Sequence record: MH719082.1
Strand: one strand, 5' to 3'
DNA: 64,000 bases
Origin: Escherichia phage vB_EcoM_IME392
Shown here: piece after piece, positions 11,194-46,253 of the stretch
Position numbering within the stretch: position 1 is the first letter of the stretch
Layout: every line of letters starts with the position of its first letter
Program-made: the position numbers and the translations under genes
The notes under the pieces: model-generated
What the model was told of the DNA's origin: nothing
What the model saw: the letters and a program-made list of their open reading frames with translations, nothing else
The model's database searches: none

Positions 11194-12771
11194 ATGGCAG
11201 AAAACGAAGTGGTCTCTAAGCAAGACTTAGATGACAAACCTGGTTCTCGCCAGGAGGTCTTAGCAAAGTTGCTAGACGATACCATCACTATGAAGCATAG
11301 TGATGGATTGTTGGGCACGGTACAGGCTTACCTTACCGATCGCCTTACCAATATGGTAACCACTCGTGAAAAGTATTTCAACGAGCTGGCGAGATTTCGC
11401 TATAACTATATCACAGCTGGTATCTATGATATCATCTGCAATGACGTGCTCACCAATACGGATGATGGTGGATTCGTCATAGAGATTGAAGGTGATGAAG
11501 AACTGACTCAGGAGGCGAACGAGCTAATTAAGGCTCTGGCCATCCCGGACTTCCTCACCTCCATTTTGCCGGAGTTACTGCACTATGGATCATACCCCTT
11601 AAGACCGTCACTGGAAGATGGCGAGGGATTGATTGGGTTGGTGGATGATTTTGATCCGCGTGATGTTATCGCAGTAACTGATTCATCCGGCCTTCCTATT
11701 TTCTTCTTCGTGAATTACACGACTAAAGATGCTGGGTACATAGACTATGAGTCTCGTCAGAAGATGGAGTATCTAGGTCCTCAAGAGGTATCTTACCTCT
11801 CTCTGGATCAGAACTTCATTAAGCTGCCGATTCCCGATAAAGTCACTGCCCAGATGAAGCGTAAAATTACGGAAGAGTTGGGTGAAGACGAACCTATGGC
11901 TAAGCTCATGGGTAAGTCGATTAAAATTCGTTCGTCCTTGTCATTCTTATGGGGATCTCTGGATAAGCTCAAGAATATCTTGATGCTGGATAAGGTTAAC
12001 GTCTATAAGACGCTGGCTAACCTCCTGAGTCCGTCTGTAATCGGTGTTCCTCTCCCGAATAATAACGACATTAAGCAGATGAAGTCTATAGTCAACGACT
12101 ATGACCAAATCATTAACAGTACTAACCTGTTTGCTGCTGATATGAGTAACCTCCAGTTTAACCTGCAGGATATTGTATCAGTTAAAGTCGTTCCTATCTC
12201 TGGAGATCGGTCTGTACCTCAGATCCTGGATACTGGTAAGTCGGATAACACTATCGATCCAGAGAAGATCAGATCCGAGTTAGAGGTTCTGTTACAGTCC
12301 TATGGTATTCCTCTGGAATTATTCCTCGGAAGCCTTTCCTCTAAGGATAACCTAAGGACGAATATTCGTTATGCTAAGAAGATCAAGCGCATCGGTAAGA
12401 GCCTGTGTAAATGGCTGCAATATCTGCTGCTGTTACACTTCGGCTTTAAATACGAGAATCTGGATCTCGAGTTATCTGAAATTAAGGTAACACTGAAGTC
12501 CTCTATTAACGTAGATGCTCTTGAGAATATGGAGACTCAAGATCTTCTTATCACAAGTATTAATGGTATGACTGGGATGCTGGATTCTCTGAAGAACGAG
12601 ATCGAGAACTCCAATTATACTATTGATAACGATGCTCTGCTTAAGGTAGTCGCGGATACTCTCGCAGACATAGGCTCTCCGTTCCACGGAGTAATTAAGC
12701 TTAAGTCCGAGGTCCCTATAACCCAGCAGACTCCTCCTGCTCCCCCAGAAGATGGTGAAGAGAATGAATAA
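11194..12771 (+). CDS. portal protein (positional and size-based)
   Basis: 525 aa directly after terL; acidic C-terminus. Confidence 0.55.
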   Translation: MAENEVVSKQDLDDKPGSRQEVLAKLLDDTITMKHSDGLLGTVQAYLTDRLTNMVTTREKYFNELARFRYNYITAGIYDIICNDVLTNTDDGGFVIEIEGDEELTQEANELIKALAIPDFLTSILPELLHYGSYPLRPSLEDGEGLIGLVDDFDPRDVIAVTDSSGLPIFFFVNYTTKDAGYIDYESRQKMEYLGPQEVSYLSLDQNFIKLPIPDKVTAQMKRKITEELGEDEPMAKLMGKSIKIRSSLSFLWGSLDKLKNILMLDKVNVYKTLANLLSPSVIGVPLPNNNDIKQMKSIVNDYDQIINSTNLFAADMSNLQFNLQDIVSVKVVPISGDRSVPQILDTGKSDNTIDPEKIRSELEVLLQSYGIPLELFLGSLSSKDNLRTNIRYAKKIKRIGKSLCKWLQYLLLLHFGFKYENLDLELSEIKVTLKSSINVDALENMETQDLLITSINGMTGMLDSLKNEIENSNYTIDNDALLKVVADTLADIGSPFHGVIKLKSEVPITQQTPPAPPEDGEENE

Positions 12772-30891: not shown

Positions 30892-32362
30892 GTTCAACAC
30901 TCTAGATTACTTCTCTCCTAACCTTAGAGGGAACGAGTTATATAAGTTCTTCTCGCAGGTGCTGGATCATGGTCTAGAGACTGTTGTCTTTCCGGAGATG
31001 GATAAAAATACGGCGATTTATGATCCTAGTAAACCGTCTTATGATCCGATTTATATCCTGGAGCTACTGGGTCAACCAGACTTAGCAGATCTCATAACTA
31101 CCGAGGTAGACCAGAACTCAGTATCTGTACTCCTCCCAAGTATCCTTGATAACAAGGGTATGAAGGATGGGGTTGATCTTATCTTTAAGCTGATAAATGT
31201 AGAGATAGAAGAGATATTGTATCAGAAGACTCCGGAAGGCTGCTCACTGGCAACCATCCTGCTTCCTAAGAACGTGATCTTGTCTACTCGGCAGATTAAG
31301 CTAATTGATCGTCTGTCGCGTAAGGTATTTCCGATATGCGTAAGACTTACCGGTATCGCTAACTGTCTTCCAGATGGCGTTGAATCTCTCGGAAGCGCCT
31401 CCTTGGACACCAGTTGGTTGCTAGACACATCAATCCTGGATGGTTCAGTAGGTATACGAGTCCCAGATATTTCGGATACTCTATGGCTGCGATTCTGTCT
31501 CGATATTATGTCGGAGATGGAAGTACCTCTTGAAGTGTTGATTGATCGCTTCTCGGATCGTCTGATGAACTCTTATCTGACTGTATTCGATAGGAGAACT
31601 ATCAAGCTAGATAATGGTCTTATTCTGGATATGGGTACATACTTAGATCTCCAGAATACCGACACTGCTCACAGCAGACTCTATAGCTCATTGGCTAAGT
31701 TTAATGTAGATTTAAGCGCCGATTCCAGAACTACTGAGATTGAGTCCTTACTGGACTTATCAGACTTGGTAGCTGGGTTGGAGTTTAAGTCCTCTATGCT
31801 GCGTGAGATCTTCCTGTTCTTGGATATCGACCTCTCAGAGTTCGGATTCCAGAATTACATGGATAGGAAGATAGAGCACTTATCCAAGGGGATAGAGCAA
31901 GTAAATTATGGATATGAGGGTGGTAATTACGCTGATGGTTACGATTTAACTAACTATCAGGGTTTCGAATACGAGAACTTATACGTAATCCAATCTCATC
32001 GTGATGGCCAAACTCAGCGTAGCGGGACGGCTTATTACGGATTGCCGGAAATAGACTGGCTACACTTCGAAGGTATGGACTTCATTAATGGGTCTTACCT
32101 GCTGGATGGTACTCGTTATCTTCACCAGGAGTTCATTAAAAAGATCAAAGTGTACGATTGGTATACTCATTGGTCTAGCTACCGAGAAGCTATGTTCCTA
32201 ACCACTCATAAGACCGAAAGACTCTTAGAGAAACGGGATGGGACTATTCTCCATGACGGAACTTATAATCGCGGTGAGAAAGTAACTCGTTACGGATTCG
32301 AACCTCTGTACAACGACGTTATTAGTCACGATGATACTTACTATCGCGATGCCAATCTATAG
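30869..32362 (+). CDS. baseplate/tail-fibre-associated protein
   Basis: 497 aa; alternative starts at 30878/30884. Confidence 0.45.
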   Translation: MRGMSMAKFNTLDYFSPNLRGNELYKFFSQVLDHGLETVVFPEMDKNTAIYDPSKPSYDPIYILELLGQPDLADLITTEVDQNSVSVLLPSILDNKGMKDGVDLIFKLINVEIEEILYQKTPEGCSLATILLPKNVILSTRQIKLIDRLSRKVFPICVRLTGIANCLPDGVESLGSASLDTSWLLDTSILDGSVGIRVPDISDTLWLRFCLDIMSEMEVPLEVLIDRFSDRLMNSYLTVFDRRTIKLDNGLILDMGTYLDLQNTDTAHSRLYSSLAKFNVDLSADSRTTEIESLLDLSDLVAGLEFKSSMLREIFLFLDIDLSEFGFQNYMDRKIEHLSKGIEQVNYGYEGGNYADGYDLTNYQGFEYENLYVIQSHRDGQTQRSGTAYYGLPEIDWLHFEGMDFINGSYLLDGTRYLHQEFIKKIKVYDWYTHWSSYREAMFLTTHKTERLLEKRDGTILHDGTYNRGEKVTRYGFEPLYNDVISHDDTYYRDANL

Positions 32363-32370
32363 GTGATTAG

Positions 32371-33138
32371 ATGAGCAATTATACTGGGGCATTTAACTTT
32401 CATGCTCAGGTGTACCAATTTGAAGAAAGTGATGTGGTTAAAGGTGGCCCGGACGGCATTGATAACGTGCCTCTTACCCAGCTGTCAGATCGTACGTTTT
32501 ATCTTAAGGCTCTTGCTGACTTTACATTCCTTAAGCTATTCAATCTTAATCCTCTCGGCTCGTTCAAACAAGGATTCCAGATTAACGTGGCTGGGTATGC
32601 GGTCTTCGACGAGGCCTCCGGTAAGTGGTTTAAGTGGACAGGATCTCTACCTAAAGTAGTGGTTAAGTCTTCTAAGCCAGAAACTACTGGAGGTATCTAT
32701 GATCCAACCACCAATCCGAGCGGTAAGTGGGTGGCTATTGACTTCAGTGTTCTAGACCTTGGCGCTGGGGTTAAGATCCCTACAGCAGCTGCTCCTGGTA
32801 ATCTGTATAGCGGTAAGTACAATCCAGCCTTCGTTAAGATTGAGAATGTCTCCAATCTAGACATAGCAGAAGCCATATATACCAGACTAGGGAATGTGGT
32901 TACTGTTAATGGCAAGATCACTGCTTCTGCTACCGATGCCGGAGAAGTAATGAAAATAGGAATTGGCTTACCTATTAACGCTACCTTCTCAGATGACTCA
33001 AGCCTCTCAGGAGTTGGCGTTGGTATAGTAGCTGGTCAGATTTATGCCGATGTGGACAGTAGTGTGGCTGTTCTTGAGATTAATCAGGGTAGTACAGACG
33101 AGCTGTCTCTGAGATACACGTTCTCTTACACTATATAA
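32371..33138 (+). CDS. receptor-binding-protein anchor-domain protein
   Basis: N-terminus paralogous to 33151 gene; GKWFKWTGSLPKVV...TGG motif. Confidence 0.5.
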   Translation: MSNYTGAFNFHAQVYQFEESDVVKGGPDGIDNVPLTQLSDRTFYLKALADFTFLKLFNLNPLGSFKQGFQINVAGYAVFDEASGKWFKWTGSLPKVVVKSSKPETTGGIYDPTTNPSGKWVAIDFSVLDLGAGVKIPTAAAPGNLYSGKYNPAFVKIENVSNLDIAEAIYTRLGNVVTVNGKITASATDAGEVMKIGIGLPINATFSDDSSLSGVGVGIVAGQIYADVDSSVAVLEINQGSTDELSLRYTFSYTI

Positions 33139-33150
33139 TAGGATATCGAA

Positions 33151-34068
33151 ATGGGTACTTATCAGGGTAAAAATCAGTACGTAGAGGACATCTATACCTT
33201 CGAACGTACTGACAAAGTGTCGGGTGGTGATGACGGTATTGATAACGTACCCATTAAGAATCTTACCGACAGAACTACATATCTCCGTAGTCTAGCATTG
33301 AATTCATTCCTGGATATCTATGGGATTAACCCAGTAGGTACTTTCGGGATAGGATTTGATCTCCAGGACTCTGGGGATGGTGTGTATGACGAGGTGTCTG
33401 GCAAGTGGTATTACTGGCTAGGCTCCTTCCCCAAATCTGTTGCCGAGAATTCTTCTCCGGAAGATACTGGTGGTATCTTCGACCCAGAAAGTAATCCAGA
33501 TGGATTATGGACTGAGGTAATTCCGGTAAACCAGCGTCAGGTAGATATGGCTGCTCGGGCATTCCGAGTTAAGACCGAAGAAGTCCAGTTCATGAAAGTA
33601 GGTCGTCCTCTCGACGGCTTTCGTGTATTGTATGACTTAGCTTCCCAGGAAGCTTATCGTTTACCTATGGATATCCCTGAAGGATCAACTATTGTTAGCT
33701 TAACAGACGGAGGGTGGCTAGAGCATAGCAATGGCAGGGTAAACTTATCTGCTTACGCCGTCGAATTAGAAGAGTATAAGTACTTTACCGGAGGCGACTT
33801 CAGTACCGGCTTTACTCTACGTCAGAACCACTGCATAGTTATGCATGATGGTGTTCTGTATCGCTGGGATGGCGATTTTCCGAAGACCGTAAATGCTAAC
33901 AGTACTCCAGAATCAGACGGTATTGGTGATGGTAAATGGGTTCCTGTTAAGACTGGTGCCCTGTATCGCTATGCTACTGTTGCCCAGTTAGATAGTGTTG
34001 AGAATGCTCTAACTACTCGCATAAACGAAGTAGAGAGCGCCGCTTTTGTTAACGCATTACTGTTCTAA
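33151..34068 (+). CDS. receptor-binding-protein anchor-domain protein (two motif copies)
   Basis: GKWYYWLGSFPKSV and VLYRWDGDFPKTV repeats. Confidence 0.5.
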   Translation: MGTYQGKNQYVEDIYTFERTDKVSGGDDGIDNVPIKNLTDRTTYLRSLALNSFLDIYGINPVGTFGIGFDLQDSGDGVYDEVSGKWYYWLGSFPKSVAENSSPEDTGGIFDPESNPDGLWTEVIPVNQRQVDMAARAFRVKTEEVQFMKVGRPLDGFRVLYDLASQEAYRLPMDIPEGSTIVSLTDGGWLEHSNGRVNLSAYAVELEEYKYFTGGDFSTGFTLRQNHCIVMHDGVLYRWDGDFPKTVNANSTPESDGIGDGKWVPVKTGALYRYATVAQLDSVENALTTRINEVESAAFVNALLF

Positions 34069-34077
34069 GGAATACCC

Positions 34078-34419
34078 ATGGCAGCTAAATTTAAACGAGC
34101 TAGCGCTACGCTAACTAAATCTGAATCTACCATTTATACTACTCCGGCTACTGGTGCTATAATCGTTGGAATCCTGGCAGCCCATAATGGTGTTACAGAT
34201 GCTGCAGCTCAGTTTCAGCTTAAGATTAAACCTGCATCTGGAAATGATGTATACCTGCTAGGTAAAGACACTAATCTTCCTCAGAAGTCGGCATTGAATA
34301 TCGATTCTGCTAAGGTAATTCTCATGGATGGTGATCAGGTAGTAGCTTCAGCATCTGCTGTAGATACTTCTAATAACTCGAACATGGTAGACCTGACTCT
34401 TTCCATTGTGGAGAACTAA
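34078..34419 (+). CDS. hypothetical tail protein
   Basis: 113 aa ORF with AAGGA RBS. Confidence 0.45.
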   Translation: MAAKFKRASATLTKSESTIYTTPATGAIIVGILAAHNGVTDAAAQFQLKIKPASGNDVYLLGKDTNLPQKSALNIDSAKVILMDGDQVVASASAVDTSNNSNMVDLTLSIVEN

Positions 34420-34420
34420 T

Positions 34421-35767
34421 ATGGGTGGTTATATTGGTTTCAATCCATCTGATGGTGCTGGTGAACTTCGTAATGAATTGACTCCTAAGATCAAGAACAA
34501 CCAGGATAACATCATCGAGTTGTGGGCGAATGACTTAGCCGATTGTGGTTACAATCTGGCAGCTACTTTCGAGTTCGGTGGTATCTTATCTAACCGATTC
34601 GATCTGGTAGTATCTCTTGATCGTCAGCGTGCATATTCATGGAAGGGTAACTTTCCAGTAGATATTGCAAACGCACCTATCACCCATTCTAATTGGGTAC
34701 CTTGGTCGATCGACCAAATGGGTGCTGGTAACTTATTGGAAGTTAAGTGGGTATCCTCTCGTAAGTTATTAGGGTCACCATTATGGGGTGGATTCGTAGC
34801 AGCTGATGGTGGTATCTTCTCACGTATCTTGTATCCTGATACTTGGGCAGCAGTCAATGCTGGACTAGTACAAGTATGTCCTGAAGCTGACTGGGTAGCT
34901 GATCCTACTAAGCGCCACTGCTATACTACTGGTGATGGTACTACTACCTTCCGAGTACCTGACTTAAATGGTGCGTACCGTCATCCTAGTGACTCCTCTA
35001 AGAACTCCATTCCAGGATTATTCTTACGTGGTGATAATGGTAGTGACTACGGATACGTCCAGCGTAATGCTGCACCTAATATTACTGGTATTATACAAGG
35101 TCGTACTTCTGGTACTTATGGTCGACTATTCAGTCAATCTACTATTAATAGTGGAGCATTACAAACTAGTGATGAGAATGGTGGTGAATTCGCTACTGGT
35201 ACAGTAACTGCATCGACTCCATCTGATCGTATGAGTAAGTTACTATTTGATGCATCAAAATCACTTACACCAGGTGCTGAGGCTTACGGTCGTGCTGAAC
35301 CTAATGGTGCACCTGCTGATGAAGTCCGACCTAACAGTGCAGTAGGTTGTTACGCTATCCGTCTACAAGGTCGAGTTGTGAATCCCGGTACGGTGGATCT
35401 GTTATCATTAGTTGATACAGTTGCAGGTATGACTATAGGTAATACACCTAGCAGTAATCAGATTCCTAACATGAAGCATTGGACTCGTGGAGGGTCAGGT
35501 CGTGCATGGTGGAGGAAAGAACCTGATGGATTCATTAGACAGGGAGGATTCTTTACTGCTAATGTTAGACCTGGTTCAGGTACTAAAGTGTACGTTGATG
35601 TAACATGGGCTATACCATTCCCTAATGAATGTAACTCAGTAACCGTAGGTGATGCTGGATTCGGTGATGGTAATATGTGGGGCGCCACTAATATCACCAG
35701 GACTGGAGCTCGTTTATGGTGTAGCGCAGTAGGCGAGGGTGGTTACTACTTGGCTGAGGGCTACTAA
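34421..35767 (+). CDS. tail fibre protein
   Basis: start ATG 34421; shares TTFRVPDLNG...RGDNG...NGAPNITG block with 36207 gene. Confidence 0.55.
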   Translation: MGGYIGFNPSDGAGELRNELTPKIKNNQDNIIELWANDLADCGYNLAATFEFGGILSNRFDLVVSLDRQRAYSWKGNFPVDIANAPITHSNWVPWSIDQMGAGNLLEVKWVSSRKLLGSPLWGGFVAADGGIFSRILYPDTWAAVNAGLVQVCPEADWVADPTKRHCYTTGDGTTTFRVPDLNGAYRHPSDSSKNSIPGLFLRGDNGSDYGYVQRNAAPNITGIIQGRTSGTYGRLFSQSTINSGALQTSDENGGEFATGTVTASTPSDRMSKLLFDASKSLTPGAEAYGRAEPNGAPADEVRPNSAVGCYAIRLQGRVVNPGTVDLLSLVDTVAGMTIGNTPSSNQIPNMKHWTRGGSGRAWWRKEPDGFIRQGGFFTANVRPGSGTKVYVDVTWAIPFPNECNSVTVGDAGFGDGNMWGATNITRTGARLWCSAVGEGGYYLAEGY

Positions 35768-36195
35768 TGGCTAATTATCTATATAGCAATTCTCGTAAAT
35801 CGTTCTATCCAGTATCGTTAATAGAAAATTATCAAAATAGCATAAACGGATTACCTGAAGATTTAGTAGAAGTCAGTGATTCTGACTTTAATGAATTTTC
35901 TCAGAGTCGTACTAATGAGTGCTGTAATTTAACTGAATCAGGATTCGAGTGGATTCCTAAAGGTCCTGAACCAGTATCAGTCGAAGATGCTCATCGTATC
36001 AAGAGTATCTTGATAAATAGTGCTAATAAGACTATTAGTACCTGGCAGACTAAGTTGATGCTTAATAGACTATCTGACGAAGATAAAGTCAAACTGAATG
36101 CTTGGTTGGACTACATCGATGAGCTGGAAGCTATCAATCCTGACTCAGTAGAAGATACATCAGCTATCCCGTGGCCTACTGCTCCTGAAGCATAA
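35767..36195 (+). CDS. tail fibre assembly chaperone (Tfa-like)
   Basis: 142 aa; C-terminal LNAWLDYIDELEAINPD...IPWPTAP. Confidence 0.55.
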   Translation: MANYLYSNSRKSFYPVSLIENYQNSINGLPEDLVEVSDSDFNEFSQSRTNECCNLTESGFEWIPKGPEPVSVEDAHRIKSILINSANKTISTWQTKLMLNRLSDEDKVKLNAWLDYIDELEAINPDSVEDTSAIPWPTAPEA

Positions 36196-36206
36196 AGAGG
36201 TATAAA

Positions 36207-37658
36207 ATGTCAAATGGATATATTGGTACCTACCCTAAATTCGCTATTTATTCTCCTGAGAAATTGGCGAAAGGTACCACCACTAAGACTCTGCAGTATG
36301 CTCCAGGATCAGCTTATGCAATTCTGGTAGTAGTAGGCGGGGCGATTCAGGAACCTAACGTAGCCTATACTGTAGCAGGTAATGTCATTACTTTCACGGA
36401 GACGCTCCCGTACGATGGATGGGTTCAGTACCGTGGACTTGAAGGTAAGGATGCTACTGACTTTATCGCAGCTGCAGGTGATCCAGTACTATCAGCACGT
36501 TGGGCATTCTCACGTGATCATATCTGGGATGGATTCGTTCCACTAGATGGTCAGGAATTATCTCGTGCTATGTACCCGTCAGCATGGGAGGCTATCAATG
36601 CTGGATTAGTACCAGTCGAGGATGATGCTGCATGGTTGGCTGATCCCAAGAAACGTGCATCGTTTACTAAGGGTGATGGTACTTCAACATTCCGAGTACC
36701 TGACCTTAATGGTAAGTTGGGTGATTCTATAAAGGGACTGCACATCCGTGGAGATAATGGTGATTCAGCTCGTACCGGTAAAGTACTCCAGAATGGCGCT
36801 CCGAATATTACAGGATACACTAATTTATTAGGGTATAACACATGGGCAAATAATGCCGGAGCGGCCAACGGTGCATTAAACTTAAGCCAGGGTTTAGCAT
36901 TCTCCAACGGTACCGATTTAGTTGTAAACTCTTCTTACAGAGAATTAAGAGCTAATTTAGATGCATCTAAATCTAATGCATCTTATGGTCGTGACGGCAC
37001 TGATGAAGTGCGTCCTAATGCAGCTATTGGATGCTGGGTAGTCAAGTTATTCGCAGGTATCGCTAATGCTGGTGTAGCTGATCTGCAGCAAGTGCTAGTC
37101 ACGTTAGCTGGTAAGATGGATAAGACCAAGTACGAATTCGGTGTACCAATGATTGGCGTACCATTCTACTGGCCATCGGATAAGATGCCTGATGAAGTAT
37201 ATCCTGAGCTGAAAGGTATGCACTTCATCCAAGCTCGTGGTGATAACTTCGATGCTGAACTGTATCCTAAGTTAGCTACTGTTTATCCTAATAATAAGTT
37301 ACCAGATTTACGTGGTGAATTCATCCGTGGTTGGGATGACGGACGTGAAGTGGATACTGGACGAGCTCTGCTATCGCGTCAATCACATTCAATTATTGAA
37401 CACTCACACTATATGGAGTTGTGGACAGGTGACGTACTTCATTCTGGGGATGCTAGAGATGGGGTAAATGCAGGAGTACTGGCTACCTATGGTGATGGTG
37501 GGTCAATTAAATCTGACGAATCAGGTAATCATGTACCCTCCTTAGTACGAGCTATTAATACTCGTAATATTAATCGTTACAACGTAAATAGCGAAAATAT
37601 AAGCACAGAAAACCGTCCACGTAACGTAGCATATAACATCATTGTAAGGGCATTATAA
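36207..37658 (+). CDS. tail fibre protein with phage tail-collar domain
   Basis: VPFYWPSDKMPDEVY...LPDLRGEFIRGWDDGR. Confidence 0.6.
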   Translation: MSNGYIGTYPKFAIYSPEKLAKGTTTKTLQYAPGSAYAILVVVGGAIQEPNVAYTVAGNVITFTETLPYDGWVQYRGLEGKDATDFIAAAGDPVLSARWAFSRDHIWDGFVPLDGQELSRAMYPSAWEAINAGLVPVEDDAAWLADPKKRASFTKGDGTSTFRVPDLNGKLGDSIKGLHIRGDNGDSARTGKVLQNGAPNITGYTNLLGYNTWANNAGAANGALNLSQGLAFSNGTDLVVNSSYRELRANLDASKSNASYGRDGTDEVRPNAAIGCWVVKLFAGIANAGVADLQQVLVTLAGKMDKTKYEFGVPMIGVPFYWPSDKMPDEVYPELKGMHFIQARGDNFDAELYPKLATVYPNNKLPDLRGEFIRGWDDGREVDTGRALLSRQSHSIIEHSHYMELWTGDVLHSGDARDGVNAGVLATYGDGGSIKSDESGNHVPSLVRAINTRNINRYNVNSENISTENRPRNVAYNIIVRAL

Positions 37659-38266
37659 TGAGCATTGAATTTAACGATCAAGGTTTTGCCACCACTTCTG
37701 GTAAAGTGATGGTTTATAACTACAATGAAGATACTCGTGAATTCACATTTAATCGTGAAGAGTTTATCTACGTAGGTGTATCGGTACCAGCTCACTCCAC
37801 AATCGTTCCAGTGCCTGCAGAACGTGAAGGATATGCTCGAGTGTATCATGAAGATACCAAGAAGTGGGAATATGTAGAAGATCACCGTGGAGTAGAAGTT
37901 TACTCAAAAGCTGATCAAACTAAAGTAACTATCCAGGAACTCGGACCTATCGACGATATCTACACTACGATTGCTCCTACTTCAATCCATGATAATTGGG
38001 ATGAAGATACTGGTGCATGGGTACTAGATGAAGTTGCTGAGCACGAAGCTAAGGTGGTTGCGGCTGATGCCAAGAAAGTAACATTGATTGAGGATGCTAA
38101 TGCTTATATCAATAGTAAGCAGTGGCCATCCAAACTGGCAATGGGCCGACTGAGCGATGCTGATAAAGTCAAGTTCAATTTGTGGCTAGATTATCAGGAG
38201 GAAGTAGAAGCTATTGAAACTACTGATCCTGATACTATCGTATGGCCAGAAGCACCTGCTAAGTAA
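37658..38266 (+). CDS. tail fibre assembly chaperone (Tfa-like)
   Basis: C-terminal FNLWLDYQEEVEAIETTDPDTIVWPEAP, paralog of 35767 gene. Confidence 0.55.
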   Translation: MSIEFNDQGFATTSGKVMVYNYNEDTREFTFNREEFIYVGVSVPAHSTIVPVPAEREGYARVYHEDTKKWEYVEDHRGVEVYSKADQTKVTIQELGPIDDIYTTIAPTSIHDNWDEDTGAWVLDEVAEHEAKVVAADAKKVTLIEDANAYINSKQWPSKLAMGRLSDADKVKFNLWLDYQEEVEAIETTDPDTIVWPEAPAK

Positions 38267-38341
38267 TATTTATTAAGGGGTAGTTATGTCAATTAATTAC
38301 ATGACTCCAGATAGTATCGTGATTGTAAGTGAGGTGTCAAT

Positions 38342-38965
38342 ATGAGCCTCACCCGTCTTAAGTATTTAATGAACGAAGGTACAGATGCTGAAGTTGAAGC
38401 GTATCTACGCCAGCTGGGTATCGGTAATGGAGCTCCATTAATAGGAGTACCGTTCCCGTGGGTTCATCCTACCAAGATGCCTGATGAGATATTTACTTCA
38501 ATGAAGGGTATGCGATTTCTGAAGATGAATGGTCAGACATTCGATCCAGAAACATACCCAGAACTGGCTAAGCTATGGACAACTAATCAGTTACAAGATC
38601 TACGTGCACAATTTATCCGTGGATGGGATGACGGTCGAGGCATGGATGCAGGACGAACGATCAATACTGGTCAGTCAGATTCTGCCCCAGAAATATCTGG
38701 TTGGTTCAGGACTGTTAATACTGAGAATGCATCAATCTGGGAAAGCATAACATCAGGATTTGGTTCTGGAGCTCTCTACGGTACTAATACTAAAGGTCAG
38801 TATTATAGATTAGCGGGACTTCCAATGGATATTAACGCTACCTATAAGTATCCTACAGTAATTAACTTCTTGGCATCACGATCATCTTCAGTATATGGAC
38901 GAAACGGCACCAATGAAATTGTACCTAAAAACGTAGCATTTCTGTACATCGTTCGAGCTAAATAA
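38342..38965 (+). CDS. short tail-collar-domain fibre protein
   Basis: VPFPWVHPTKMPDEI...LQDLRAQFIRGWDDGRG. Confidence 0.55.
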   Translation: MSLTRLKYLMNEGTDAEVEAYLRQLGIGNGAPLIGVPFPWVHPTKMPDEIFTSMKGMRFLKMNGQTFDPETYPELAKLWTTNQLQDLRAQFIRGWDDGRGMDAGRTINTGQSDSAPEISGWFRTVNTENASIWESITSGFGSGALYGTNTKGQYYRLAGLPMDINATYKYPTVINFLASRSSSVYGRNGTNEIVPKNVAFLYIVRAK

Positions 38966-39044
38966 ATAAATAGCTACAATAGCAGGTGCAACTTGTACAT
39001 GGGTTATGATAAACGAAGTGTTGACAATATCATAGGGTGATTAA

Positions 39045-42032
39045 ATGTCTTATAATCCAATTGTAGAAGGGTCAACTTGGCCCGAGACTATTCGCCGCTT
39101 AGAAAAGACGGATAGGGCAGAAGGCGGTCAACTAGTTACTAATTCTAAGGATGAACCAGTATCCGGACATATTAATCATCCAATAACCCAATTAGCTACT
39201 AGAACCTCCATTTTAAAAAAGTCTAATTTATCGATAATTAATAATACTAAAGAACAGTGGAAGTTATTACTCGGTGACTTAGGACTAACTCTTGTTGGCA
39301 CTTTTGAAGAAGGTGCTACAGTAAACAGTAAAAAGGATGCTGTCTGGCATATTGATGGTGGCCAGTGCTACGTGTGGGGTGGCGTGCTCCCTAAGACTGT
39401 ATATGCTAACTCCTCACCGCTAACTACTGGTGGTGTCTCTTCTGATGCTTGGGTTAGTATTGGTGATACCGCACTGCGAGGGCAAATATCAGACCCGGAT
39501 GGTGCAACAAAATACCCCGAATTGCAGATTGCTCGATGGCGTGACATTTTCGACCCTCGTGGTTGGGGAGCTAAAGGTGATGGATTAGTCGATGATACTG
39601 TGGCTCTTAATAATCTGTTAAGCGCTGCTCCAGTAGGTCAGAAAATTAATGGTAACGGCAGAACCTATAAAGTATCCGCACTTCCAGATATTAGCAGATT
39701 CGTTAACACTCGTTTCGTTTATGAGCGTATTCCTGGCCAGCCGCTTTATTATGTATCTGACGAGTTTGTTCAGGGTGAGTTAATTAAAATAACCGATACC
39801 CCTTATTACAATGCTTGGCCTCAGGATAAAGCGTTCGTTTACGACGATGTTATTTACTGTCCGTTCATGGCTAGCGATCGGCACGGGGTTAGCAGGCTTC
39901 ATGTATCCTGGGTTCGCTCAGGTGATGACGGACAGACCTGGACGACCCCGGAGTGGCTAACTGACCTACACCCTAATTACCCAACAGTTAACTACCACTG
40001 TATGAGTATGGGGGTGATGCGTAATCGTCTCTTTGCGATGATTGAGACCCGTACTTTAGCAGCTAACGCATTAGTGACCTGTGAGTTGTGGGATCGCCCC
40101 ATGTCCCGTAACTACCATCTGACAGGTGGTATAACAAAAGCTGCCAACCAGCCTGTGGCTGTAATTACCATCCCTGAACACGGTCTTTTTGCTGGGGATT
40201 TTGTTAACTTCTCGAACTCTGGGGTGACTGGCGTTTCTGGGAATATGACTGTAACTTCAGTTATTGACCGCAACACGTTTACAGTTACCACGCCAAATCA
40301 ACAAGCATTCGACCAAAATAACTCTACCAGCCGCTGGCATATGGGGACATCGTTCCATCAGTCACCATGGCGTAAAACCAGCCTTGGATTGATCCCTATG
40401 GTTACCGAGGTTCACAGTTTTACCGCCATCAATAACGATTCATTCATGATGGGGTACCATCAGGGTGATGTTGCTCCGCGTGAAGTAGGTATGTTGTATT
40501 TCCCTGATGCATTTAACAATCCTGGGCATTATATAAAACGACGTATCCCTGCTGAATATGAGCCGGATGCGGCAGAACCCTGTGTTAAATATTTTGACGG
40601 TGTTCTTTATGTTGTAACCCGTGGAACTCGGTCGGACCGTCTGGGTAGTTCGCTTCATCGTAGTAATGATTTGGGTATAACCTGGCAATCATTGAGGTTC
40701 CCGAATAATGTCCACCACTCCACCCTGCCATTCGCTAAGGTAGGAAACGAACTGATTCTTTTCGGCACTGAACGCGCCGACAACGAGTGGGAAGCAAACG
40801 CACCCGACCAGCGATATTTTAGTTCTTACCCACGAACGTTTTACACGCGAGTGAACCTCGACACCTGGAACCTGGATAATACTCAGTGGGTGAATATCAC
40901 TGACCAGATTTATCAGGGTGGTATTGTTAACTCTGGCGTCGGTGTCGGATCGGTCGTCGTGAAAGATAGTTATATCTATTACATGTTCGGTGGGGAAGAC
41001 CATCTGAACCCATGGACATATGGAGATAACTTAGAGAAAGACCCATTCAAATCAGACGGTCATCCCTCAGATTTGTATTGTTACAAAATGCAGATCGGTC
41101 CAGACAATCGTGTTTCTCGTGATTTCAGGTACGGTGCTGTACCTGACAGAGCGGTTCCAGTGTTTTTTGATACGAATGGAGTTCGCACTGTTCCTGCTCC
41201 AATGGAATTTACAGGGGATTTGGGTTTAGGTCATGTGACCATTAGAGCCAGCACCAGTAGTAACATTCGCTCTGAAGTTTTAATGGAAGGTGAGTATGGG
41301 TTTATCGGGAAATCTGTACCGACTAATAACCCTGCAGGTCAGCGCATCATATTTTGCGGAGGCGACGGTACCAGTTCTTCTACTGGTGCACAGATTACGC
41401 TTTACGGTGCGAGTAACACAGCTTCTCGCAGGATAGTTTACAACGGAGATGAGCATCTGTTTCGGAGTGCTGATGTTAAGCCTTATAACGATAACGTCAT
41501 TGCGCTTGGTGGGCCTAGCAACCGTTTCACCACTGCATACCTCGGAAGCAACCCTATTGTTACTTCTAACGGAGAGAAGAAAACAGAGCCGGTAGTTTTT
41601 GATGATGCTTTTTTAGATGCTTGGGGCGATGTTCATTACATCATGTATCAGTGGTTGGATTCTGTACACCTGAAAGGAAATGACGCTAGAATCCATTTTG
41701 GCGTAATTGCTCAGCAGATCCGCGATGTATTCATTGCTCACGGTCTGATGGATGAGAACAGCACGGATTGCCGCTATGCTGTTCTGTGTTACGACAAATA
41801 TCCTCGCATGACAGACATGGTGTTCTCTCACTATGAAATAGTTGAACACACTGACGAGGAGGGTAATGTCACTACCACGGAAGAACCTGTATACACCGAG
41901 GTGGTTATTCACGAAGAGGGTGAGGAGTGGGGTGTGAGGCCTGATGGAATTTTCTTTGCTGAGGCAGCATTCCAGAGAAGAAGACTGGAAAGAATCGAAG
42001 CCAGACTTTCCGATCTTGAAAAGAAGCAGTAA
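39045..42032 (+). CDS. tailspike: sialidase-like beta-propeller with C-terminal S74 intramolecular chaperone domain
   Basis: 995 aa; Asp-boxes SGDDGQTW and SNDLGITW; C-terminal ARIHFGVIAQQIRDV...FAEAAFQRRRLERIEARLSDLE; N-terminal anchor motif. Confidence 0.65.
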   Translation: MSYNPIVEGSTWPETIRRLEKTDRAEGGQLVTNSKDEPVSGHINHPITQLATRTSILKKSNLSIINNTKEQWKLLLGDLGLTLVGTFEEGATVNSKKDAVWHIDGGQCYVWGGVLPKTVYANSSPLTTGGVSSDAWVSIGDTALRGQISDPDGATKYPELQIARWRDIFDPRGWGAKGDGLVDDTVALNNLLSAAPVGQKINGNGRTYKVSALPDISRFVNTRFVYERIPGQPLYYVSDEFVQGELIKITDTPYYNAWPQDKAFVYDDVIYCPFMASDRHGVSRLHVSWVRSGDDGQTWTTPEWLTDLHPNYPTVNYHCMSMGVMRNRLFAMIETRTLAANALVTCELWDRPMSRNYHLTGGITKAANQPVAVITIPEHGLFAGDFVNFSNSGVTGVSGNMTVTSVIDRNTFTVTTPNQQAFDQNNSTSRWHMGTSFHQSPWRKTSLGLIPMVTEVHSFTAINNDSFMMGYHQGDVAPREVGMLYFPDAFNNPGHYIKRRIPAEYEPDAAEPCVKYFDGVLYVVTRGTRSDRLGSSLHRSNDLGITWQSLRFPNNVHHSTLPFAKVGNELILFGTERADNEWEANAPDQRYFSSYPRTFYTRVNLDTWNLDNTQWVNITDQIYQGGIVNSGVGVGSVVVKDSYIYYMFGGEDHLNPWTYGDNLEKDPFKSDGHPSDLYCYKMQIGPDNRVSRDFRYGAVPDRAVPVFFDTNGVRTVPAPMEFTGDLGLGHVTIRASTSSNIRSEVLMEGEYGFIGKSVPTNNPAGQRIIFCGGDGTSSSTGAQITLYGASNTASRRIVYNGDEHLFRSADVKPYNDNVIALGGPSNRFTTAYLGSNPIVTSNGEKKTEPVVFDDAFLDAWGDVHYIMYQWLDSVHLKGNDARIHFGVIAQQIRDVFIAHGLMDENSTDCRYAVLCYDKYPRMTDMVFSHYEIVEHTDEEGNVTTTEEPVYTEVVIHEEGEEWGVRPDGIFFAEAAFQRRRLERIEARLSDLEKKQ

Positions 42033-42155
42033 ATAAAGACTTTTACCGTAGGTAGGAGAAGGTAGAGGCTTCAATTTAAGATTTAACTTAAACTAATCAC
42101 CACTCTAAAGTTACTAAGTGTTTGTACATCATGTAATATTTTATGGAGATCACCA

Positions 42156-44777
42156 ATGGGCGGTCGTTCTAAGTTATTTAGCGAACTGGGCGGAGCTCCT
42201 CTTAATACTTATCAGCATGATAACCAGACTCTCGATATTCGCGAGTTAGAAAATCAGCAGAAAGTATTAGACGAGACTCTTGCCGAAACAATAGGCAACG
42301 TTAACGAGTTGCAACAGACTGCTGGTCAGTCTATGTATATCCTCGGTAACTATGCCTCCGGAATGGTGATCGAGAACGACCGCCAGTACGTCAGATATGA
42401 TAATCTGCTGTACTATTGGACTGGTCCTGTACCGTTCACTACCACCGGCAACTTCTACGAAGAATCCTACTGGACTGGTGGGGTACAGAGCGGTATCGAG
42501 TGGAGTTACGAGGTACAGGAAGATGGGGAATTCGAGTTTAATATTCCTTACTCCTTTACCAACGTACGTCTATTCGTAGGTGGTGTCCGCCTTACTCGCG
42601 TAGAAGATTACACTATCGATGTGATTAATCGCAAGATCACTCTGACTAAGGTTAAGCTGTCGAAGGGTGTCCTGGTGACTGCCGAGCTGAACTCTCGTGA
42701 TGCTCTTAGCGTTACCCAGGATCGCATCGATAGCCTTACCAGAGAGATCTCAGAGAAAGTAGGTTTCGTTAATTACAAACTTACTGATCTGTCTGAAGGT
42801 CAGAGCCTGACTCTCACTACCAGAGTCCAGACTGTAAGCTTCTCAGTAAATGGGGAGTATTATAAATGGGATGGCGTTCTTCCTAAAGTTGTTAATTATG
42901 GAGATCCGGAGCCATCTCAATCTGAACAGGGGACTGGTAAGTGGATTCCTGTAGGTTCTGGTGCTCTTAAGTCAGAGCTCATGACTGCTGGCGAAACTAC
43001 TGGTGCTGCTATTGTCTATCTGAGATATGGTGGCACGGTGGCTGATGGTATTCGATACATCACCCCAGAAATGGCTCGAGCTAAAGGCGACGGTACTACG
43101 GACGATACAGCAGCTCTTCGCTCTGCTGTTACCCTGGCTAAGACTTATGGTCTTAAGCTTATGGGTATGGGTACTTACAAGATCTCTAACCAATCGGTGG
43201 ATATTTCCGGGGTAGTGATCGAGAACCTAACCATAGTTGGTACCGGTGCTAGTTCACAGCTGCTGGTTAATGGCGATACGGACATAACTAAGCTGAACCT
43301 TAGCAAATGCGGTATTCGTCACATCAACGGTATCTTTAAACTCGACCAGTTCGAAATTAATGACTGTTCTGCGACTGCTGCTCTGCTGTGTCAGCAATTA
43401 GCAGCTAATAGCCAACTGTTCGTCACTAATGGTATTATGCGTCGCTGTAACTATGGTTACCTCCGTCAGGGTAGTCCTGCATCTTCCAAGCCGCTCACTG
43501 CGACTCTGCTACAGAACTTACAGTTCTTCGACATGAAGAGCGACCCTATTGAGATTAACTTGGCAGTAGCAGATACCAATACCCGAATCGACAACATCAC
43601 TGTTGATAATGTCGACGCGACCAGCACTGGTAACGCTAACTGGGGTATTGCAATCGGTCTGGCTGGTACTGGTAACTACTCTCTGACTGCTCCGGACTCC
43701 GAGTATATGTCAGACGTGGTGATCAGTAATGTTAAGGTTAAGGGTGCTAAGCAGTGTATCCATATGGAGAAATGCCGAAACATCACTATACGAGACATCG
43801 AGATTTACCCAGATGTTAATAAGTCTACTGGCGTAGGTCTGGATACTGGCGGCCTTATTGCCTACGGATGCAAAGATATCGATGTGGATGGTGTGATCGG
43901 CTCCCCAGTTAACGGTACTGAGGAGATGATTCGATTCTTGTGGGGTACTGTAAACAGTGCTTACACCTTCGCTCATCGTAACATCCGTATTCGTAACGTA
44001 AATATCACTGGTACTGTTCATGTTGAGGTATGTACTACCGATACTCTGAACTCTACTGTCGAGATGAAGAATATCAAAGCTACCACTATATCTCTTCAGG
44101 GTATGGCATCCGAGTATCGTCTCTCGGACTGGTCAGCTGAGAAAATCATTCTCGACTTCCGCTACACGTCTGGTGATGCTCGAGATAACTACCGCCGTAA
44201 CAAGTGGATGGTTGCCAACATCTCCAACATGAAATGCCTTGATCCTAATACTGGTGCGGCTAACGTTACTGTCCAGAACATCACGGTGGATACTCTGGAA
44301 GTCTCGGATTGTAACTTCTCTATCCCGAAGACTACCACTGCTACTCACTACCGTGGTACTCCAGCATGGCGTCAGAACGGCGTGATTTATCATACCAAGA
44401 CTGGTACTCCTTACGGCATGGCTCTTCTTGCTGGTGACACTATTGTTGCCAGCGATGGAACTATGTTCACGGTGACCGCTCCTGGAGCTCTGTTCTATAC
44501 CAACGAAACTGTTGCGGCTGCCACTGCTGGGTCTAATTCTATCCGTTCTAAGGCTAACCTTAACTGGACTGGTCAGTATTATAAGACCGCTGGATGTAAG
44601 GTTAAAATAGCAGGAGGTGGTGGTGCTGATGGTGCTGATTATATCGGTACTATCATCCGTAGTGGTTATGTTAATGGCGGTAATTATTACTTTGATGTGT
44701 ACCCAGCACTTCAGTCTAACGTTCCTGATGGCGCAGTATTAACTTCTGTAGATACGCCAGCCTTTAAGACAGTTTAA
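42156..44777 (+). CDS. tailspike with right-handed beta-helix (depolymerase-like) domain
   Basis: 873 aa; two anchor motif copies; central repetitive N/G/T/V-rich region typical of parallel beta-helix. Confidence 0.6.
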   Translation: MGGRSKLFSELGGAPLNTYQHDNQTLDIRELENQQKVLDETLAETIGNVNELQQTAGQSMYILGNYASGMVIENDRQYVRYDNLLYYWTGPVPFTTTGNFYEESYWTGGVQSGIEWSYEVQEDGEFEFNIPYSFTNVRLFVGGVRLTRVEDYTIDVINRKITLTKVKLSKGVLVTAELNSRDALSVTQDRIDSLTREISEKVGFVNYKLTDLSEGQSLTLTTRVQTVSFSVNGEYYKWDGVLPKVVNYGDPEPSQSEQGTGKWIPVGSGALKSELMTAGETTGAAIVYLRYGGTVADGIRYITPEMARAKGDGTTDDTAALRSAVTLAKTYGLKLMGMGTYKISNQSVDISGVVIENLTIVGTGASSQLLVNGDTDITKLNLSKCGIRHINGIFKLDQFEINDCSATAALLCQQLAANSQLFVTNGIMRRCNYGYLRQGSPASSKPLTATLLQNLQFFDMKSDPIEINLAVADTNTRIDNITVDNVDATSTGNANWGIAIGLAGTGNYSLTAPDSEYMSDVVISNVKVKGAKQCIHMEKCRNITIRDIEIYPDVNKSTGVGLDTGGLIAYGCKDIDVDGVIGSPVNGTEEMIRFLWGTVNSAYTFAHRNIRIRNVNITGTVHVEVCTTDTLNSTVEMKNIKATTISLQGMASEYRLSDWSAEKIILDFRYTSGDARDNYRRNKWMVANISNMKCLDPNTGAANVTVQNITVDTLEVSDCNFSIPKTTTATHYRGTPAWRQNGVIYHTKTGTPYGMALLAGDTIVASDGTMFTVTAPGALFYTNETVAAATAGSNSIRSKANLNWTGQYYKTAGCKVKIAGGGGADGADYIGTIIRSGYVNGGNYYFDVYPALQSNVPDGAVLTSVDTPAFKTV

Positions 44778-44801
44778 TAGATTAAACTGAGGAGATTCTT
44801 G

Positions 44802-46253
44802 ATGTCCACCCAATTGCCAGATAGTCTGCAGTTAAGCAGCCTTAAGTACAAAGGTGACTATGCGGCTGGTATCTATCTAAACGGTAACCACTGCATTCTC
44901 AGATTTGTGCGTACTGATGGTAAGAAGGTGTTGGTTAAGTGGGTGGGGGACATCCCCCACACCACCGACGGTGAAACTCCGTATGCCGATGCCGAACAAA
45001 CTACTCTTAAAGCTGGATACGAGATCTTCGCCCAGACGAATGCAGTAGACTTCATTATTTCAATGCTTGGATCTTCTACCTCCTGGCGCTACATTGGCCA
45101 GGTAAACTCTGTGGAAGATCTGAAAACTATCACTCCTAAAGATGGCGATAGAGTGATGGTTAAAGGGTACTTCGGAGAGGGTACTCCTGGTGGTGGCGAG
45201 TTCAGAGTTAAAACGGAAAGCGACTCCATAGCCTCTGATAGTAAGGATGTGGTAAACGGTTGGGTAAGGGTTCGTCGTAGTAGAGAGTTCAGAGCTACCG
45301 AATTTGGTGCTGTTCCTGATAAATTCACTGACTCTACTGGTCAGGTTCAGGATATGCTTACCACTATCACCACTGGTCTGGCTATTATCGACCCAGGTGT
45401 AAAATACACTCTGGCCAGCTTAACTATTAAGCCTGGCGTCCAGATTCTGGATATGTCTGGATGGGATGGTAATTCATGGACGGCTGCAGTGAGATTCATC
45501 AGTAACTCTACTGATGGTTTAATTATCTCGTCTGCATCCAACGCTAACCTTAACCTTAACAGTAATAACGGGTTAGCCAGAGCTAAGGTATCTTACAGCG
45601 TAAGCGGAACTAAGATCTGGGAATCGGGTATGAGCGATGACTCTAACCGTGACTGGCATGTTCTTCGCGGAGCTGAATCTCGTTATCGTGTGGTAGCCTC
45701 TTCCCAGACTCACGCATGGAACCGAGATACCATAGTTGAAGGTGTCGATTACCACTTCGGTAAGAGAGCATCAGAGGATCATATTCTTCGATACGATGCA
45801 GTGAATACTGGCTATGATATCATTCATACCTACTATCACGGACCTACTCTTACTTCTAAGGTAACCCATAAAGGCGATGGATCAGTAGTCCTGACCCAGA
45901 ATGGTAAGGATACCATCAAGATAGTAGATGGTGTAATGACTGGTGCTCTTAAGAAGATCATCACGTCTACAGCTAATGTAACTCTTACCGCAGCTGATAC
46001 CGGTGCTATCTGCACTACCGATGGTGCCACTTCTGCTGTTACCGTTACCCTGCCAGTCGCTGTTCCTGGTATGACCTATGATGTTCTTGTAGGTGCCAAC
46101 TACAGCGTATCAGTAAAAACTGGTGGTACAGATCTCTTCCGTAATGGGAAAGCCACTATTTCCAACTCGGATAAGGGATCCTGGTTACGCTTAGTTTGTG
46201 CTATCTCTGGTTACTGGGAGATGGATACTGTTCAGGGTACCTGGGCAAGTTAA
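44802..46253 (+). CDS. tailspike/tail fibre protein
   Basis: ATG 44802 after GAGGAG; 483 aa in RBP gene series. Confidence 0.5.
   Translation: MSTQLPDSLQLSSLKYKGDYAAGIYLNGNHCILRFVRTDGKKVLVKWVGDIPHTTDGETPYADAEQTTLKAGYEIFAQTNAVDFIISMLGSSTSWRYIGQVNSVEDLKTITPKDGDRVMVKGYFGEGTPGGGEFRVKTESDSIASDSKDVVNGWVRVRRSREFRATEFGAVPDKFTDSTGQVQDMLTTITTGLAIIDPGVKYTLASLTIKPGVQILDMSGWDGNSWTAAVRFISNSTDGLIISSASNANLNLNSNNGLARAKVSYSVSGTKIWESGMSDDSNRDWHVLRGAESRYRVVASSQTHAWNRDTIVEGVDYHFGKRASEDHILRYDAVNTGYDIIHTYYHGPTLTSKVTHKGDGSVVLTQNGKDTIKIVDGVMTGALKKIITSTANVTLTAADTGAICTTDGATSAVTVTLPVAVPGMTYDVLVGANYSVSVKTGGTDLFRNGKATISNSDKGSWLRLVCAISGYWEMDTVQGTWAS

Follow-up and report, generated by a model that had tools for sequence, protein, structure and literature searches.

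A probable mobile receptor-binding cassette of tail fibre and Tfa chaperone genes in Escherichia phage vB_EcoM_IME392

Tail fibres of modular build that are served by Tfa chaperones are well known from textbooks, and several described systems resemble the locus presented here, which occupies positions 34078-38965 of a 64,000-nucleotide (nt) stretch of Escherichia phage vB_EcoM_IME392 (MH719082.1; the whole stretch is referred to as the window) and comprises p113, two fibre genes, two Tfa genes, and a short collar gene. In the T5-like phages DT57C and DT571/2 the lateral tail fibres are branched and consist of LtfA and LtfB, which differ in receptor specificity; LtfB is proposed to dock on amino acids (aa) 223-471 of DT57C LtfA (PMC4728585; PMC10713586). 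The DT57C fibres have a predicted C-terminal autocleavable chaperone domain (pfam13884, Peptidase_S74 type), and no separate Tfa genes are mentioned for them (PMC4728585). In Mu, P1, and e14-type loci, Sc/Sv-U and Sv'-U' sets are switched by the Gin, Cin, or Pin invertases (PMC12529663). According to the model derived from work on phage Mu, the variable N-domain of a Tfa binds the fibre and the conserved C-domain trimerises, while T4 uses gp57A and gp38, not a Caudo_TAP Tfa (PMC9608196). IME392 itself, with a contig of 116,460 bp, was described by Hu et al. 2021 (Arch Virol 166:2505), as cited in PMC9720304.

All genes of the locus are on the + strand, and the open reading frames (ORFs) located in an earlier note on this DNA lie where it places them. 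The parts of the locus are:

34078..34419, + strand: p113 (113 aa), left end of the cassette, 88-97% identity across all cassette copies
34421..35767, + strand: fibre 1 (448 aa), assigned by BLASTP, Pfam, and PHROG tail fibre families
35767..36195, + strand: Tfa1 (142 aa), Caudo_TAP at 68.5 bits, phrog_188
36207..37658, + strand: fibre 2 (483 aa), assigned by BLASTP and Pfam Collar, 100% identical to the 'putative collar fiber protein' of IME392
37658..38266, + strand: Tfa2 (202 aa), Caudo_TAP at 61.9 bits, phrog_105
38267..38341, + strand: intergenic spacer upstream of the short gene, with 91-100% conservation in four genomes
38342..38965, + strand: short collar protein (207 aa), assigned by BLASTP, annotated in IME392 as 'putative tail fibers protein'

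Orthologues that begin with MGGYIGF support the ATG as the fibre 1 start. Both Tfa start codons overlap or abut the stop codons of the upstream fibre genes.

These genes, from p113 to the short fibre, probably form a self-contained multivalent receptor-binding cassette that moves between phages as a block. This reading is built on observed homology, gene order, architecture, lateral sharing, mosaic pattern, and tip-chaperone co-variation, to which it adds presumed receptor binding by the heads, a presumed attachment to the virion, and a presumed mechanism of recombination. The order p113, fibre 1, Tfa1, fibre 2, Tfa2, and one or two short genes is also present in the relative contigs L002, L003, and L004 (~112-113 kb), and a further contig, L008, carries the right-hand end of the cassette, where two short genes lie. 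At least seven contigs bear the cassette. The backbone of L003 is that of IME392. Upstream of the cassette, L002 and L004 differ in gene set, with a PAAR protein and proteins of 662, 559, and 364 aa, and in direct comparison the baseplate proteins of IME392 and L004 are only 23-27% identical. The cassette DNA of IME392, however, has 84-94% nt identity to L002 and L004, from 34077 into the first codons of the short gene. Such high identity next to so divergent a baseplate suggests that the block was transferred as a unit between distant phage lineages. Since phages with very different baseplates have the same gene order, the two-fibre arrangement appears to be old and to predate the transfers.

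The left border of the transferred block coincides exactly with p113, which is found in the cassette only: nt identity between IME392 and L002/L004 begins exactly at 34077, with values of 92-94% there. A homologue search for p113 outside the cassette returned none, and the protein has no Pfam, PDB, or remote homologue match; it is possibly an adaptor. As for the phage collection, megablast of 34000-39100 gives no match, the collection apparently lacking IME392 itself. The nearest backbone relative in the collection is EP_H11, with 93-95% identity over the backbone. Its identity ends at window position 31636 and returns at 46236, the 14.6-kb receptor-binding region in between (31637-46235) being different, and none of the six cassette proteins has a homologue in EP_H11.

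The fibres and chaperones of the cassette are divided into the following parts, all on the + strand:

fibre 1: N-anchor (aa 1-104) and type-A collar-head module (aa 105-336, 34733-35428)
35519-35764: C-terminal Gp53-like_C tip of fibre 1 (aa 367-448, Pfam PF21882)
fibre 2: N-anchor (aa 1-93), type-A module M1 (aa 94-302, 36486-37112), and a conserved linker
37140-37655: type-B collar-head module M2 of fibre 2 (aa 312-483)
Tfa1: variable N-domain (aa 1-78) and conserved C-domain (aa 79-142, 36001-36192)
Tfa2: N-domain (~135 aa) and conserved C-domain (aa 140-202, 38075-38263)

According to BLASTP, fibre 1 aa 105-336 and fibre 2 aa 94-302 are 40% identical over 234 aa (E 5e-41). Fibre 2 aa 312-483 and the short protein are 35% identical over 187 aa (E 2e-32), which bears out the earlier note in its statement that the short gene repeats the collar module. 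A second, weaker match joins fibre 2 aa 175-280 to aa 87-205 of the short protein (E 4e-7), and with two matches of the short protein in one chain, fibre 2 is therefore read as two collar-head modules in series. Fibre 1 and the short protein give no significant BLASTP match. The similarities found are far beyond chance. As for the common motifs listed in the earlier note, the similarity is real; the exact common strings, however, are TFRVPDLNG, RGDNG, and APNITG, with STFRVPDLNG and NGAPNITG in fibre 2 and TTFRVPDLNG and NAAPNITG in fibre 1.

Pfam cut-offs are 24 bits for Collar (PF07484), 22.1 for Caudo_TAP (PF02413), and 24.9 for Gp53-like_C (PF21882). The Collar cut-off is passed by fibre 2 M2 (40.9 bits) and by M1 when scanned alone (24.3 bits). 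It is not reached by the fibre 1 module and the short protein (17.4 and 17.8 bits, respectively), although according to BLASTP both are clearly homologous to the fibre 2 modules. The Gp53-like_C tip of fibre 1 scores 29.4 bits over aa 367-448, above its cut-off. Peptidase_S74 is absent from fibre 1, fibre 2, and the short protein and appears in the scan solely in the neighbouring endosialidase.

The fibre 1 module also matches by sequence the module of DT57C LtfA and LtfB. PDB 8HQZ matches by sequence as well, but its model covers the LtfA N-terminus only, so the module has no structure there. Both type-A modules of the cassette have an unusual insertion (LVxVxxxAxWxADPxKR) and a similar neck, and the insertion is also found in outside homologues such as LtfA. 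Comparison of type A with type B by hhalign aligns the C-terminal strand region only, with a probability of 91.5%, the type-B alignment being shallow. Each fibre has an N-terminus that is ~100% conserved among orthologues, but the two do not resemble one another. All three fibre proteins appear to share one widespread building block, a collar scaffold with a hypervariable head.

In the short protein a 29-aa neck at the N-terminus is followed by a type-B collar, then by a head of A-like type (APEISG), and finally by the conserved last strand. The neck, MSLTRLKYLMNEGTD...LGIG, is conserved in all copies and aligns with ...DIKSDGT...NLGLGEG, the segment that precedes the tip in prophage fibres, and this segment coincides with the crossover site of Pin-type inversion (PMC12529663). 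The head is 34% identical to LtfA aa 670-785. Over 88-100% of its length the protein is homologous to prophage fibre tips, and many 168-183-aa ORFs termed 'variable tail fiber' in prophage invertible segments are among its homologues. Relatives have one or two short collar genes, with two in L008. The GAGGTG that precedes the ATG, the conserved N-terminus, and the conserved spacer argue that the short gene is expressed.

The spacer at 38267-38341 is more conserved than the flanking coding DNA. Its equivalents in L002 (12022-12127), L003 (12070-12176), and L004 (12079-12183) contain a 30-32-nt insertion (ACTCCCTCCACCCATTCAT-G8/9/10-TCT) that is absent from IME392 and whose G-tract length varies by genome; either phase variation or an assembly error in the homopolymer could account for the differing lengths of the G8-G10 tract. 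Shuffled sequence folds as RNA no worse than the spacer does. The 19-codon ORF at 38286-38345 is not taken for a gene, since in relatives the insertion disrupts its reading frame.

The claim of a Tfa-like chaperone with a conserved C-terminus after each fibre holds, as both genes pass the Caudo_TAP cut-off. Tfa1 and Tfa2 have the same build (variable N-domain, conserved C-domain), and each lies directly downstream of a fibre gene. According to BLASTP they are 50% identical over the C-terminal 64 aa only (E 3e-15), and they belong to different PHROG families. Tfa2 orthologues have Caudo_TAP_N together with Caudo_TAP. In all cassette copies Tfa2 is 90-92% identical, alongside the conserved scaffold and last strand of fibre 2. 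The N-domain of Tfa1, in turn, has two alleles that track two alleles of the fibre 1 C-domain, one in IME392 and L003 and the other in L002 and L004.

The two tips, Gp53-like_C in fibre 1 and a collar-head module in fibre 2, are unrelated, and each pair finds a separate counterpart in temperate phages. Tfa2 matches over its full length the Tfa downstream of P0008, a 289-aa fibre of an E. coli prophage (37%, 201 aa, E 3e-38), and the tip of P0008 is 59% identical to fibre 2 M2 with no gaps. Tfa1 matches, also over its full length, the P2-, Mu-, and HK225-type Tfa proteins of temperate Escherichia, Klebsiella, and Enterobacteria phages (31-35%) and the inverted-strand prophage Tfa (U'; 27%, E 1e-11). 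The inverted Sv' segment of the prophage is 35% identical to the fibre 1 tip of IME392 (72 aa, E 6e-8) and 35% identical to that of L004 (62 aa, E 2e-8). With Tfa1 and its tip matching Sv'/U' and Tfa2 and its tip matching Sv/U, the two pairs therefore resemble the alternative tip-chaperone sets of Mu/P1/e14-type loci. Each Tfa is presumed to fold the fibre encoded just upstream. Tfa2 probably also serves the short protein, because the latter has no Tfa of its own and its final strand is common with fibre 2.

One such prophage arrangement is found at 5983-8805 of contig L006, an E. coli prophage. It has an M2-like tip with a Tfa2-like gene, a Gp53-like tip segment with a Tfa1-like gene on the opposite strand, and a Pin-type invertase, so that both tip-chaperone classes of the cassette are inversion alternatives there.

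Alignment of orthologues (six fibre 2 and four fibre 1 sequences) separates near-invariant scaffold from variable heads. The N-terminal anchors, both collars, the inter-module linker, and the final strand (RPRNVAYNIIVRAL) are conserved at ~100%. Four segments are hypervariable and are replaced wholesale, with indels, among orthologues:

35084..35320, + strand: fibre 1 head (~aa 222-300), conservation lost; nt match to L002-L004 breaks at 35090-35302
~aa 358-448 of fibre 1, + strand: variable tip, from the orthologue alignment
36714..36992, + strand: fibre 2 M1 head (~aa 170-262); nt match to L004 breaks at 36716-37027
37368..37610, + strand: fibre 2 M2 head with HxH motif (~aa 388-468); nt match breaks at 37343/37368-37606

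The heads assort independently: L003 has the M2 head of L004 and the fibre 1 tip of IME392, and the M1 head of IME392 is common with L002. The fibre 1 head of IME392 is closest to the fibre 2 M1 head of L003 (within 10001-11461; 47%, 73 aa, E 1e-16), compared with 33% to the orthologous fibre 1 heads, which suggests an exchange of heads between the two paralogous fibre genes. As for the M2 head of IME392, it is 56-60% identical to E. coli prophage fibre tips versus 17-25% to orthologous and short-protein heads. The head of the short protein is related to prophage 'variable tail fiber' tips, and in this protein a type-B collar is joined with a type-A-like head. As for the type-B collars, the M2 collar is 54-63% identical to short-protein collars and 54-66% to prophage fibre collars, and the collar DNA of fibre 2 M2 and the short genes is 77-82% identical.

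This mosaic pattern would fit recombination at conserved scaffold sequences. A natural DT571/2 fusion joins LtfA 1-663 to LtfB 288-767 (PMC4728585), and its junction falls inside the type-A module (LtfA 603-794, LtfB 267-454). A retroelement as the source of head diversity was also considered; it is unlikely, since whole heads are replaced, with indels, from one orthologue to the next.

The similarity of the two fibre genes raises the question of their common origin. At the nt level the two genes have one common stretch of 119 nt at 74% identity, the codon-aligned module is 55% identical, and the window contains no repeat >40 nt. The fibre 1 module, searched in full against 1.84 billion representative proteins, has 946 relatives (E up to 0.001), many of them with two or three module copies. 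In neighbour-joining trees of 70 type-A modules with 200 bootstraps, the orthologues of fibre 1 (four sequences) cluster in 200/200 and those of fibre 2 (also four) in 196-200/200, while a joint clade of fibre 1 and fibre 2 modules appears in 3-4/200. The scaffold-only distance between fibre 1 and fibre 2 (0.77) equals that to outside proteins (0.73-0.81). Because of the low nt identity, the old gene order, the missing joint clade, and distances like those of outsiders, a recent duplication is excluded as the source of the two fibre-Tfa pairs, as far as sequence comparison can tell. The common type-A module would go back to a very old duplication or be drawn twice from a common module pool, the latter because tandem module proteins are common.

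According to the proposed mechanism, the collar scaffolds would carry hypervariable heads that contact the receptor, and the phage would have two or three trimeric fibres, each with one or two collar-head binders: one module plus the Gp53-like tip in fibre 1, two in series in fibre 2, and one in the short protein. Each Tfa would be the cognate chaperone of the upstream fibre tip, its N-domain gripping the tip and its C-domain starting trimerisation from the fibre C-terminus; Tfa2 would fold the short protein too. The almost invariant collar and linker sequences may be crossover points for the exchange of heads from one cassette copy to another, from one fibre to the other, and with the tail-fibre tips of temperate coliphages. 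Together with the endosialidase and the colanic-acid tailspike encoded next to it, the cassette would give several independent surface-binding specificities per virion. Host range would evolve in two ways, as heads and tips are swapped at the scaffolds and as the cassette is passed on entire.

Several results weigh against this reading. Ranked by per-domain score, the non-orthologous sequence closest to the fibre 1 module is fibre 2 M1 (171 bits for the M1 of L003 and 134 for that of IME392, compared with 124 for the best outsider). The neighbour-joining trees are based on saturated distances and are compatible with an ancient duplication inside the cassette lineage. The co-variation of chaperone and tip amounts to two allele classes in four genomes. 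Identical N-terminal anchors would have to dock on two baseplates that are only 23-27% identical, and the short protein, whose place on the virion is conjectural, has no recognisable anchor domain. AlphaFold2 monomer models have a low predicted local distance difference test score (pLDDT) for both p113 (37.5, from 5 sequences) and the short protein (40, from a 14-sequence alignment).

Among the alternatives, it is possible, though not the expected course, that an ancestor of the cassette underwent an ancient duplication and that the copies later gained different N-anchors and tip-Tfa units laterally. The type-A modules are indeed mutual best per-domain matches outside orthologues, they have the insertion and the similar neck in common, and DT57C also has tandem fibre genes with the same module. 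However, scaffold distances to outsiders are just as small, sisterhood has no bootstrap support, the insertion also occurs in outside homologues such as LtfA, and other proteins often carry the module two or three times in tandem.

A branched fibre is rather unlikely; it would be one composite organelle, with a single baseplate-bound fibre to which the second fibre, the short protein, or both attach. The presence of the cassette with two very different baseplates suggests few external contacts, the short protein has no anchor, and the LtfB-holding region of DT57C LtfA (aa 223-471) contains a collar-only copy of the module (aa 325-415), all of which would suit such a design. Against it, none of the cassette N-termini is similar to LtfB, and fibre 1 and fibre 2 each have an N-terminus that is ~100% conserved and does not resemble that of the other.

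A bolder view takes the cassette for a portable plug-in adhesin organelle, which would function on unrelated baseplates because it brings its own adaptor (p113 and/or one fibre). It would hold up to five exchangeable heads, with short proteins docking non-covalently as Tfa2-folded tips and collars serving as crossover sites, and a virulent phage would co-express what temperate phages alternate by inversion. As a whole this is unlikely.

It is very unlikely that the short gene or genes are unexpressed spare tips, a donor library for fibre 2 left from an invertible Sv/Sv' system. Homology to 'variable tail fiber' segments of 168-183 aa, which come from invertible regions of prophages, and the 77-82% identity of collar DNA between M2 and the short genes would agree with such an origin. 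On the other hand, the ATG is preceded by GAGGTG, the N-terminal 29 aa are kept in all copies, the upstream spacer is conserved, and all genes are on one strand, with no gix/pix-like site found and, in the 64 kb, no invertase. No match to the inversion crossover site TTGGTTTGGGAGAAGG was found with up to 3 mismatches, and tblastn of a prophage Pin against the window gave a chance match only (E 5.2). A relic of an invertible G/P-segment was likewise rejected, as both crossover site and invertase are missing.

Finally, a recent tandem duplication of the fibre-Tfa unit in this phage with divergence to widen host range, as the earlier note had proposed, is highly improbable: the 234-aa common block, the Caudo_TAP gene after both fibres, and the rank of M1 as top non-orthologous match of the fibre 1 module are outweighed by the 119 nt at 74%, the 55% nt identity of the module, the 3-4/200 bootstraps for joint monophyly, an arrangement already present in phages with 23-27% baseplate identity, and non-homologous tips and Tfa N-domains from different families. 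What holds of that proposal is that the two fibres and the short protein have homologous collar-head modules, that a Tfa chaperone gene follows each fibre, and that divergence is greatest where host range would be set, in the hypervariable heads.

The block-transferred cassette with exchangeable heads therefore remains the preferred reading, and the genes around it are as follows:

5645-5720 and 6190-6265, - strand: tRNA-Met (CAT) and tRNA-Arg (TCT), respectively
32371-33138 and 33151-34068: short Tail_spike_N proteins (255 and 305 aa, Pfam Tail_spike_N)
39045-42032: K1-type endosialidase with Peptidase_S74 chaperone domain (Pfam/PHROG)
42156-44777: predicted colanic-acid-degrading tailspike (873 aa, phrog_6117, E 3e-176)

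In place of 31637-46235, EP_H11 has ~9 kb coding for spike-like proteins of 780, 560, and 824 aa, which have N-terminal anchors alone in common with the IME392 proteins of the region. The 255- and 305-aa proteins are paralogues (49% over the first 123 aa, E 8e-43) without an enzymatic body, and they look like adaptor-only forms of the N-terminus of the EP_H11 780-aa spike. The endosialidase gene is 87-90% identical at the nt level to tailspike genes of unrelated 73-155-kb coliphages (UE-S5a, YX22), which by sequence comparison points to a lateral transfer separate from that of the cassette. The N-terminal 200 aa of the 873-aa tailspike are 48% identical to the EP_H11 824-aa protein. A promoter and terminator scan found sites no more numerous than in shuffles.

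The cassette copies provide a natural map of head-swap sites that spare the scaffold, which is the kind of information that phage re-targeting for therapy needs. Near-identical fibres on baseplates with 23-27% identity pose a concrete question of how they dock on a foreign baseplate. They also illustrate that motifs common to adjacent fibre genes need not imply recent duplication.

In comparison with known systems, DT57C and DT571/2 LtfA/LtfB are alike in having tandem fibre genes and a common type-A module (35-43% identical to fibre 1 and fibre 2). The cassette fibres, however, are shorter (448 and 483 aa versus 1076 and 788 aa), and the DT57C fibres attach via LtfC to a siphovirus tail tip, with N-terminal anchors that have no similarity to those of the cassette. 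As for the invertible loci, M2 with Tfa2 is comparable to Sv-U (tips 59% identical, Tfa proteins 37% over their full length), the fibre 1 tip with Tfa1 corresponds more distantly to Sv'-U' of the same prophage, and the short protein matches the 'variable tail fiber' segments. In contrast to those loci, the two cassette pairs share a strand and can be produced at the same time, an invertase and a crossover site are lacking, and the upstream shafts are different. M2 also aligns to the tip collar of T4 gp37 (PDB 2XGF), with EHSHYMELW aligned to EHSHYIEAW. Compared with T4 gp12 and gp37, the cassette modules are much shorter, have one HxH motif or none, and occur two in series per chain. Next to lambda Tfa and Mu Tfa (PDB 5YVQ), Tfa1 and Tfa2 are ordinary members of two subfamilies. 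Because modular fibres with Tfa belong to the textbook, the finding itself is unsurprising: nothing here lies outside known phage biology, and the cassette is well delimited and ordinary for phage host-range genes.

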